Below, in pieces: positions 20,848-22,638 of a stretch of DNA of 23,812 bases. The notes beneath the pieces were generated by a model. It ran no database searches. It was not told the DNA's origin and worked only from the letters and a program-made list of their open reading frames with translations. The DNA comes from Alteromonas naphthalenivorans. Its GTDB lineage: Bacteria; Babelota; Babeliae; Babelales; CAIQNR01. Position 1 is the first letter of the stretch, and each line of letters opens with the position of its first letter. A program made the translations under genes and the position numbers. The stretch spans positions 1 to 23,812 of the forward strand of contig JBLICC010000009.1 of assembly GCA_047631715.1 (NCBI GenBank), written 5' to 3'.

Positions 20848-21576
20848 ATGAAAAACATACTATCCGTTCAAAATGAACAAATAAAAAATATCGTTAAGCT
20901 CCACACATCAAAAGGCCGTAAAGAACAAGAGCAATTTTTGGCTGAAGGCCAACGAGCTCTAGAAAGCTTTGCTAATGCAAAATGGCAGCCTGCAAACTTG
21001 TTTGCAACTAAGAAAATGGCTGAAATAGCTTATGGCATTTTTGATGAAGAGCCTATTGTTGTCTCTGAGCAGGTAATGAAGAAAATGAGTACAGCAACTA
21101 CCCCAAGTGGCATTCTTGCTGTTTTTTCTCATCCTCAAACTACTGCCCAATTGACATCAGGATTAGTACTTTCTGAAATCTCTGATCCAGGAAACATGGG
21201 GGCTTTAATTCGATCTGCAATTGCATTTGGTTCAAAATCAATTGTTATTGTTGATGGATGTGATCCTTATTCACCTAAAGTTATTCAATCATCAGCTGGT
21301 GTTATTGCCCAGGCAAATATTATTCGTTGGTCATGGAAAAAACTTATAGAGAATAAAGGAGACTTTAAACTTTGTGCTCTTGTTGTATCTGGGGGTAAAG
21401 CACCAGATAAAATTAATAAAAATGATCTTTTATTAGTAGTGGGCAACGAAGCGCATGGTCTTTTAGAAACTCAAATTAGTGATTGCGATTCGCAACTTAC
21501 ATTGCCCATTAGCAAAAATACAGAGAGCTTAAACGCAGCTATTGCTGGTTCAATTGCTTTGTATTTACTCAAATAA
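20848..21576 (+). CDS. TrmH/SpoU-family RNA 2'-O-methyltransferase
   Basis: FLAEG, TPSGILA, ISDPGNMGALIRSA, DPYSPKVIQSSAG, VVGNEAHG and ESLNAAIAGSI. Confidence 0.93.
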   Translation: MKNILSVQNEQIKNIVKLHTSKGRKEQEQFLAEGQRALESFANAKWQPANLFATKKMAEIAYGIFDEEPIVVSEQVMKKMSTATTPSGILAVFSHPQTTAQLTSGLVLSEISDPGNMGALIRSAIAFGSKSIVIVDGCDPYSPKVIQSSAGVIAQANIIRWSWKKLIENKGDFKLCALVVSGGKAPDKINKNDLLLVVGNEAHGLLETQISDCDSQLTLPISKNTESLNAAIAGSIALYLLK

Positions 21577-22638
21577 TACATCATTTAATGAGATAGACTT
21601 ATCGTTTGCCCATTGCTTAAATGTTTGTGGTCTACAATGTACATCATGCATGCACATATTAATAAACTCAACAGCTAAATCTGCTGATGCCATTGTAGGA
21701 ATTACAATGTGGGCACCTGCCTGATATAGCTCTTGAGTTGCATTGTCTCTTATTGATTTTAATAATTTTGGGTCCCGACTCATGAGTTCAGCTTCTTCTT
21801 GCTTATCAAGATTCACCCGAATACTATCGTAAGAAATACCGATCGACCAACAGTCATCATTAACGCCCTCTTGTACTCCTGCACGTGTATCATCAAATTT
21901 TATAGTTCTATGCGATGCAATATATTCTCCTGTTTTTGCAAAAGCTAACTCACGATTTTTTTGAATCATCCATGGCCCTGGACGCCCACCAATAACATCA
22001 CTCGGTACAACCCAAAAATCACGATGTGCACCTTGTTCAATCAACTTATGAATAGCAACTCCATTAGAAACAGCATTGTACCCTGTTGAACTTCCAATTA
22101 AAATTCCACGATTTCTCATTTTATGTTCTGCATCTGCAGCGCCTTCAATAATTTCAAACCCTTCTAGAATAGCTTCTAATTGTTCTGGTACAAAAACTTC
22201 ATCATGCATATAGTTAATGTCATCTTCAGTTGGAGCATGCCCATTAGCTTCTATAAATCGTTCTCGTATTTCTGGAACCAGTGCCATTTTTGCAATCTGA
22301 TCTCGTTTAGCCAAACCCATATACTCGAGCGTCCAATACTTTGTTATCGACTCAGGAACACTCATTGATGCCCAAGCACGAGTAAATGGAATTTGAGGCT
22401 TTTTGCAACCCTTATCCCCAGAAGTTCCAGAATTATCAATTACAGCAAGGCCAATCTGTGGAACTTTTTTCAAACTCACCACTACAGGACTACTCGCAAG
22501 AGCCTCTTGTGCCTGTGATTGCATACCCCTTCTTAACATGCCCACGGTTGCTCGTACTGATCTAGCTAAACTTGGCGCACTTGCTTCTAGAAAACCCGTA
22601 CTTAGTAATAAAACAACTGGTAAAAAACGTTTCATCAT
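21565..22638 (-). CDS. phnX: Phosphonoacetaldehyde hydrolase (PhnX)-like HAD protein with an N-terminal export extension
   Basis: IDNSGT (cf. DWAGT), DKGC, MGLAK (Schiff-base Lys), PTEDDI, IGSSTGY, GRPGPWM, IKFDDT..GVQEG and AGAHIVI. SD AGGGAG lies upstream of ATG 22638/22635. Confidence 0.8.
   Translation of the reverse strand: MMKRFLPVVLLLSTGFLEASAPSLARSVRATVGMLRRGMQSQAQEALASSPVVVSLKKVPQIGLAVIDNSGTSGDKGCKKPQIPFTRAWASMSVPESITKYWTLEYMGLAKRDQIAKMALVPEIRERFIEANGHAPTEDDINYMHDEVFVPEQLEAILEGFEIIEGAADAEHKMRNRGILIGSSTGYNAVSNGVAIHKLIEQGAHRDFWVVPSDVIGGRPGPWMIQKNRELAFAKTGEYIASHRTIKFDDTRAGVQEGVNDDCWSIGISYDSIRVNLDKQEEAELMSRDPKLLKSIRDNATQELYQAGAHIVIPTMASADLAVEFINMCMHDVHCRPQTFKQWANDKSISLNDVLFE

Follow-up and report, generated by a model that had tools for sequence, protein, structure and literature searches.

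The stretch analysed here (the window) is 23,812 nucleotides long, positions 1 to 23,812 of contig JBLICC010000009.1 in assembly GCA_047631715.1, which is labelled Alteromonas naphthalenivorans and placed by GTDB in the Babelota. The genome, called G000 below, has 845 kb at 35.6% GC and is 90% complete, and the source organism is an endoparasite that belongs to the Babelota (Dependentiae). The gene under study is a minus-strand open reading frame (ORF) at 21565-22638, and its product of 357 residues, P0001, is a HAD enzyme like phosphonoacetaldehyde hydrolase (PhnX) with a two-part N-terminal extension, as identified by ORF calling, profile hidden Markov model, homologue search, AlphaFold and Foldseek. 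From the start codon, all on the minus strand, the gene encodes a signal peptide of Sec/signal peptidase I type (residues 1-19, 22582-22638, likely cut after L-E-A; from heuristic and alignment), a presequence-like segment (residues 20-44, 22507-22581; from composition, hydrophobic moment and modelled helix), a flexible linker (residues 45-60, 22459-22506; predicted local confidence, pLDDT, below 50 at 49-56), the HAD core with its cap (residues 61-330, 21649-22458; from homologue alignment) and a C-terminal two-helix extension (21568-21648; from alignment and model) common to the homologue P0015 and partly to P0026. All signal and presequence calls and scores in this work come from home-made heuristics, not validated predictors, and are partly post hoc.

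The start site was assigned from the ribosome-binding site. The ATG at 22638 has the Shine-Dalgarno sequence AGGGAG 6 nt upstream (22645-22650, minus strand), AGGAG stands at equal spacing in both orthologous loci for which DNA was at hand (genomes G001 and G010), and no comparably placed site was found at the in-frame internal starts ahead of the core of P0001. The start region 22596-22778 was matched with 0 differences by a contig from a second study.

Residues 63-326 of P0001 matched Bacillus cereus PhnX (E about 1e-26) and residues 65-318 matched the PhnX model TIGR01422 at 160.8 bits, which is below the equivalog cut-off of 220 bits; Pfam gave no family for it. The AlphaFold model, built on an 18-row alignment, had a mean pLDDT of 89 and a predicted template-modelling score of 0.81, and the top 8 Foldseek matches were all PhnX structures (E 5e-19 to 6e-16; next family 1e-9). 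The modelled protein has a HAD core with the PhnX-type C1 helical cap, beginning near residue 61-65, so the preliminary description of this DNA was right in calling a PhnX homologue with about 60 extra residues ahead of the core. It had taken DWAGT as motif I, which in P0001 reads DNSGT. The nucleophile D68 (D12 in PhnX numbering) is kept, and the run D68-N-S70 has no acid/base Asp at +2, unlike ordinary HAD phosphatases. The cap residues M107 (Met49) and G108 (Gly50) and the Schiff-base K111 (K53) are kept in all four members of the clade described below, and P0001 also keeps C78 (C22), T185 (T126), Y187 (Y128), R219 (R160) and K247 (K183). Motif IV reads D249-D250-x3-G254 (DDxxxG), with Gly in 64 of 159 rows. 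To judge from these residues Schiff-base chemistry is probably kept, and since P0001 resembles PhnX yet misses both the equivalog cut-off and His56 (below), it is filed as a divergent PhnX-like variant.

The first 19 residues are consistent with a Sec signal, with a basic n-region, a hydrophobic h-region and L-E-A as cleavage site, and the homologous site of P0015 in the alignment is L-K-A. The twin-Arg motif S/T-R-R-x-F-L is absent from the signal and TatC was not found in the 90% complete genome, and P0001 does not look like a Tat substrate. The Sec-like signal described earlier thus stands as a heuristic match, although not as a striking feature, because 276 of the 739 called ORFs of G000 (about 37%) carry one, as do 44% of the proteins of the cultured relative Chromulinavorax according to PMC6561590; on an enzyme of this genome a signal peptide is ordinary. 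The segment behind it, residues 20-44, has 4 Arg, 0 Lys and 0 Asp/Glu, a net charge of +4 and, over 18 residues, a hydrophobic moment of 0.62, in agreement with the Arg-rich, acid-free stretch noted before, and it uses Arg rather than Lys although the G000 proteome has 8.0% Lys and 3.9% Arg. It has the composition of a mitochondrial presequence (net positive, acid-free, rich in Arg, Ser, Ala and Leu, with an amphipathic helix). AlphaFold gives residues 22-48 as one helix (pLDDT about 60-73), followed by a disordered linker at 49-56 and then the core. The segment ends in R-G-M-Q-S, which we take to be like the R-3 site of the mitochondrial processing peptidase (MPP), and the regular expression used for the MPP motif was positive. 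An ESM feature search with residues 20-60 gave no usable match, the structure rows being generic helices.

On a composite presequence score P0001 ranks 3rd of the 257 signal proteins of G000, and at least four Arg, at most one Asp/Glu and a moment of at least 0.5 were found in 3 of these 257 against about 1.4 expected from internal windows. Taken alone the basic segment is not beyond chance in G000, whereas its retention in three divergent orthologues goes beyond chance.

These orthologues are P0026, from the congeneric genome G001, P0164 (locus L003) and P0015 (49% identity), which was obtained from a full HMMER search; their identity to P0001 is 29-49% and the four proteins form one clade with support 94/89. 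All four have a signal (heuristic positive, with Sec-type n-, h- and c-regions and small residues at -3/-1) and then a basic segment of net charge +3 to +6 with at most 1 acidic residue in 25, that of P0026 being more Lys/Ser-rich with a lower moment of 0.42. The bipartite extension, whose presence in orthologues had been left to be checked, is therefore kept in all 3 other clade members. The 480 reciprocal best hits between G000 and G001 show a median identity of 77%. The PhnX-like pair stands at 28.7%, against a median of 64% for signal-bearing pairs, and is 8th from the bottom of the 406 pairs aligned over 150 residues or more. By the lower of the two presequence scores this pair comes 1st among 94 signal-bearing pairs and it is the sole pair that passes the strict presequence criterion; as the criterion was chosen with these sequences already in view, more trust is due to the rank. 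Targeting peptides keep their composition while their sequence turns over, and membrane-binding helices can do likewise. Word-based homologue searches returned only ordinary PhnX and P0026, and a metagenome scan with P0015 returned 6 loci, not including its own, of which the four readable ones were ordinary short PhnX (28-33% identity). The over-extended N-terminus of P0165, the cluster mate of P0015, appears to read like the same intergenic region. In P0164 (L003:1411-2061, minus strand) an internal Met lies six residues ahead of the catalytic Asp, where canonical PhnX starts, and it may be a relic of a start that predates the extension.

In the phylum a strong TIGR01422 match was present in 3 of 261 genomes (G000, G001 and G010; 112-162 bits, next best 63), and all three copies sit between a SpoU gene and a permease. 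In the window these are a SpoU/TrmH-family RNA methyltransferase (20848-21576, plus strand), convergent and overlapping the stop of the PhnX-like gene by 12 nt, and a divergent APC amino-acid permease (22733-23812, plus strand) that runs off the window, both from Pfam-type labelling. Of the 13 other genomes in the family, 12 have these two genes side by side, and the PhnX-like gene was hence gained between them in one branch of the family; the SpoU/TrmH neighbour marks the insertion site and is not a functional partner. A functional link with the permease was also considered and was rejected, because the permease is present in 16 of 16 family genomes and the PhnX-like gene in 3. In G001 an extra signal-bearing, His-rich gene (L002:2480-3163, plus strand) lies between the PhnX-like gene and SpoU, and its product has weak similarity to the PhnX cap region (23.7 bits).

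Basic N-terminal extensions were also searched among other PhnX homologues. By a home-made rule 17 of 160 PhnX-like rows were labelled as having a basic, acid-poor N-extension without signal. The best ESM feature cluster was 60% viral, mostly Nucleocytoviricota, BFVD includes a Faunusvirus PhnX, and PhnX was located on seven viral contigs (L042-L048, five of them named GVMAG), in 5 of which it has a basic, acid-poor N-extension and no signal peptide. Viral scans with P0016 and with one PhnX alignment as queries gave no match, and no study of giant-virus PhnX was found in the literature. On L044 the gene stands beside two genes that we take, from an N-terminal motif, to encode major-capsid-like proteins, and at L047:9727-10821 a second gene combines a flavin-binding motif with a start that looks like a presequence. 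A tree was built from 83 rows; most short rows were excluded, as were 12 that were partial or nearly duplicates. One branch (89/98) splits it into 44 mostly short, canonical-looking rows and 39 others. The 39 include the Babelota clade, all 7 rows of viral origin and all but one (13 of 14) of the rows labelled as presequence-bearing. The phylogeny proposed earlier thus places the clade with the viral and presequence-labelled side, but in an unrooted tree that does not resolve its closer placement and identifies no donor. An origin of the Babelota gene in a eukaryote or virus pool fits this topology and is not shown by it. P0062, P0068 and P0130 form a separate clade (100/99) with a signal and, in those examined, no basic acid-free segment. 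Together with P0117 and P0059, signal-bearing homologues fall at three or more separate positions of the tree, and by this topology PhnX export would have arisen more than once.

The genome was further searched for an export route and for a source of substrate. G000 encodes TLC ATP/ADP translocases, two secretins and an ATPase of type II secretion system (T2SS) type, while the marker families TatC, the export gate of type III secretion systems (T3SS) and VirB4 were not found in this 90% complete assembly. For the cultured relative, PMC6561590 lists HAD hydrolases and M48 peptidases among the secreted proteins and describes a host mitochondrion reorganised around the parasite, for which a distant mitofilin-like protein is the only cause proposed there. 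The search for phnW that had been suggested for this genome gave none: PhnW (TIGR02326) had no match in G000, which is 90% complete, at E<=0.001 (0/1), nor in any of 261 phylum genomes at E<=1e-25, a threshold at which 11 of 14 control genomes were positive. The single class V aminotransferase of G000 is probably a cysteine desulfurase, and no phosphonate-binding protein was found in that genome; phosphonoacetaldehyde would therefore have to be derived from the host. Phosphoenolpyruvate mutase occurs in 12% of protist genomes (PMC8942020) and PhnX in rotifers (PMC3499245) and corals (PMC4878875), the coral enzyme being of dinoflagellate-linked origin. No localisation of a eukaryotic PhnX was found in the literature.

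We also asked how widely two-part N-termini of this kind occur in Babelota, in a sample of 1023 signal proteins from G000, G001 and parts of eight more genomes. Strict hits numbered 17 against 8.7 expected (p=0.008), and loose hits, with a basic acid-poor start, 49 against 28 (p=2e-4). In 121 of the 1023 the predicted cut had a Met no more than a few residues away, compared with 23-54 in downstream control windows, and basic starts were found in 15 of these 121 proteins and in 34 of the 902 others (p=2.5e-4). In the ten genomes the Met after the cut most often precedes Asp, Glu or Gln; such a start resembles eukaryotic NatB-type N-termini, and the Met may mimic the N-terminus of a host-made protein. 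As a control, 250 kb of Escherichia coli with 43 signal proteins yielded no strict match and a single loose one, itself a false signal; with 0.3 expected, this set is too small to discriminate.

Scoring of G001 brought out unrelated proteins that have a signal, a Met, a long basic acid-poor stretch and a hydrophobic anchor. One family with an unknown domain occurs in 15 of 261 Babelota genomes (loci L108, which is in G226:C7 and equals L169:18103-19998, L098, L120, L101, L104, L115, L097 and L112); an anchor-only fragment is present in G000:C58 (L099). By eye about 8 of its about 18 distinct members with a visible N-terminus have a signal, then a long presequence-like segment and often a transmembrane (TM) anchor, for example L108, L098, L120 and one L115 gene with RQFHS, and the remainder have an acidic or neutral start. 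The segment and anchor together look like a mitochondrial stop-transfer signal. The family has an invariant His; a fold search with the L087-family domain reached only Z<=5.2, and the likeness to an ADP-ribosyltransferase fold is weak (Z about 4.9). Other proteins have the signal, the Met and a basic segment with RSFCT, KSFCT or RNFCS, at L161:12576-13211 and 13225-13878 (G082), at L152:2109-2789, 7038-7475 and 7543-7965 (G243) and at L160:18165-19550. Clear cases of R-x-F-[CH]-[ST] are RSFCT or RNFCS in L161:12576 and L152:2109, and several of these proteins have a coiled coil and a C-terminal TM helix. Pfam gave nothing above cut-off for the clearest sibling proteins scanned, and L161:12576 had no homologue beyond one paralogue. 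M48 metallopeptidases with a signal, a short basic stretch and a hydrophobic segment like a signal anchor were observed at G000:C1:9520-10377 (minus strand) and L095:16532-17416, with further cases at L123-L125, L128 and L193:16464 and 17785; M48 is the family of mitochondrial OMA1. The literature search, which reached few subscription papers, returned no description of proteins with signal and presequence in Dependentiae/Babelota, a point to which the annotation supplement of PMC6561590 may be relevant.

From these data we propose, tentatively and at a little under an even chance, that P0001 is exported by Sec, delivered to the host and imported into the host mitochondrion, where it would probably act on phosphonoacetaldehyde made by the host. 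The signal peptide would route P0001 through Sec and be cut after Ala19, and the protein might then leave through a secretin/T2SS-type channel, for which genes are present, or in outer-membrane vesicles. The exposed basic amphipathic helix would be read as a presequence by host TOM/TIM23 and cut by MPP near R-G-M-Q-S. In the matrix, the apparent destination also of the viral and eukaryote-like PhnX homologues, P0001 with Asp68 and the Schiff-base Lys111 would act on phosphonoacetaldehyde of the host phosphonate pathway, as the bacterium lacks PhnW. Phosphate would be freed beside the organelle supplying the ATP that the parasite imports, or host phosphonolipid synthesis would be diverted. If the protein is targeted to mitochondria, we consider it somewhat probable that phosphonatase activity is retained. 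A Babelota-wide two-step scheme, slightly more doubtful than the placement of P0001 itself, is also a real possibility: a cleavable Sec signal would mask a eukaryote-style N-terminus, often with a re-installed Met, which would be either a presequence, sometimes with a stop-transfer anchor, or a Met-Asp/Glu N-terminus stable in the cytosol. The PhnX-like protein, possibly drawn from a eukaryote/giant-virus pool, would then be one of a small set of matrix and inner-membrane effectors.

Several observations weigh against mitochondrial delivery and against this scheme. The strict test within G000 gave 2 of 217 against 1.9 expected, hence no enrichment in that genome; its criterion is post hoc, as mentioned, and internal folded windows are an imperfect null for linkers behind a signal. 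In the ten-genome sample, where a basic start and the MPP motif jointly gave 3 against 1.4 expected (p=0.17, not significant), internal windows are likewise a rough null, several hits are false signal peptides, and hits among paralogues or relatives cannot count as independent. Among the four clade members P0001 alone is positive for the MPP expression, it lacks the Met after the signal that is typical of the clearest sibling cases, P0164 has a Glu at position 14 of its segment, and of 16 family genomes only 3 carry the gene. The tree has no root, its bootstrap did not reach convergence, and long-branch attraction may affect it. T2SS exports folded proteins and mitochondrial import needs unfolding; P0001 would also have to cross a vacuole membrane. 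In the active site His56, named catalytic with Asp12 and Lys53 in PMC11203657, is replaced by Q114 in P0001, as it is by Gln in P0015, while P0026 and P0164 have His. Gln at this position is found in 10 of 160 PhnX-like rows and so is a natural variant. P0026 has Trp for Arg160 and Thr for Lys183. Active-site constraint in the clade is, on this alignment, relaxed, and the liberation of phosphate, put forward in the preliminary description, appears to be its weakest step.

The same protein could stop after export in the periplasm, at the cell surface or inside the vacuole, with the basic helix as a linker, a membrane tether or a secretion-sorting element, and the enzyme would then scavenge phosphate from host phosphonoacetaldehyde or another phosphorylated carbonyl. 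This explanation is the chief alternative and a serious possibility, if a rather doubtful one: signal-bearing ORFs, other HAD hydrolases included, make up 37% of G000, chance alone would give one basic segment per genome, and the clade of P0062, P0068 and P0130 has the signal and no basic segment. It sits less well with the basic, acid-free character, which all four proteins (29-49% identity) keep although their sequences have changed. Basic residues straight after the signal usually hinder Gram-negative Sec export, and their being kept nevertheless suggests that they are used. Neither PhnW nor a phosphonate-binding protein is present to supply the substrate, and free phosphonoacetaldehyde is a reactive intracellular intermediate.

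If P0001 does reach the host it could also be sent elsewhere, to the cytosol, a plastid, a hydrogenosome or mitosome, or the mitochondrial surface. Plastid transit peptides are likewise Ser/Ala-rich, basic and acid-free, and the Lys/Ser-rich segment of P0026 with its moment of 0.42 would suit such an address, but the amphipathic helix, the Arg preference and the R-3-like site of P0001, the R-x-F-[CH]-[ST] motifs of sibling proteins and the mitochondrial association of the cultured relative (PMC6561590) make it unlikely. That P0001 is an ordinary cytoplasmic PhnX from an internal start, the extension being an annotation artefact, seems very improbable. In-frame ATG or GTG codons do exist at residues 32, 34, 39, 53 and 54, and P0164 has its Met six residues ahead of the catalytic Asp; the strong Shine-Dalgarno at the upstream start is nevertheless conserved in three genomes, the signal peptide is kept in all four proteins, the internal starts lie at non-conserved positions, and no PhnW would supply a cytoplasmic substrate.

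The remainder of the window gives a housekeeping context. Over 1-19350, read by ORFs and Pfam-backed in part, we presume genes for MreB, GlmU, SbcD, two PPIase/SurA-like exported proteins, ComF, signal peptidase II, PheT, a rhodanese, MurB, a queuosine salvage transporter with Tgt, an M23 peptidase and a signal-bearing ankyrin protein. At 20150-20599 (plus strand) lies a gene for a small exported protein with a very Arg/Lys-rich segment behind the signal and a Gly/Tyr/Pro-rich tail; it is joint top of the presequence composite score and has no Pfam family. Elsewhere in G000, C52:1548-2306 and C5:22825-23616 (both plus strand) encode two more HAD-type proteins with signal peptides, the latter with a short basic segment with SQAQ ahead of motif I.

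Mitochondria-targeted bacterial effectors include EspF and Map of enteropathogenic E. coli, delivered by T3SS, and Anaplasma Ats-1, delivered by a type IV secretion system (T4SS), and there are fungal effectors with signal and transit peptide. Like the proposed P0001, these are parasite proteins with a host organelle import signal at the mature N-terminus. EspF, Map and Ats-1 are, however, injected with the presequence at residue 1, whereas in P0001 a cleavable Sec signal would mask it. Canonical PhnX (TIGR01422; B. cereus 1swv/1rql/2iof and Oleispira 3iru in the PDB) is like P0001 in fold (Foldseek TM-score 0.88-0.93 by target), with about 31% identity and with the nucleophile Asp, the Schiff-base Lys, Met49, Arg160 and motif IV in common. 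P0001 differs in about 56 extra N-terminal residues (signal and basic helix), the C-terminal extension, its 160.8 bits against 220, Gln for His56 and the absence of phnW from genome and phylum. Achromobacter PhnX has no signal according to PMC11203657. The PhnX of giant viruses (Nucleocytoviricota) and the eukaryote-like rows have the basic, acid-poor N-extension and lie on the same side of the deepest supported split, but the viral enzyme is made in the host cytosol, needs no signal peptide and would be placed in the mitochondrion by its extension. P0062, P0068 and P0130, perhaps from another symbiont of protists, have, like P0001, a Sec-type signal on a normally cytoplasmic enzyme, and unlike it they belong to a separate clade and, in those examined, lack the basic segment.

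Should the periplasmic or vacuolar alternative hold, P0001 would be no more than an exported PhnX of divergent sequence, in a lineage where a third of all proteins are exported. The significance of the finding rests mostly on the class to which the PhnX-like gene points. Babelota/Dependentiae are widespread ATP-stealing parasites of protists, and a signal-masked presequence, if true, would be a way to send parasite proteins into host mitochondria and would give a searchable rule for mitochondrial effectors in the phylum. Giant viruses and bacteria would then both send a C-P-cleaving enzyme to host mitochondria, and host phosphonate metabolism would be a resource over which they compete. A set of matrix and inner-membrane effectors of this kind, if it exists, could explain the remodelling of the host mitochondrion.

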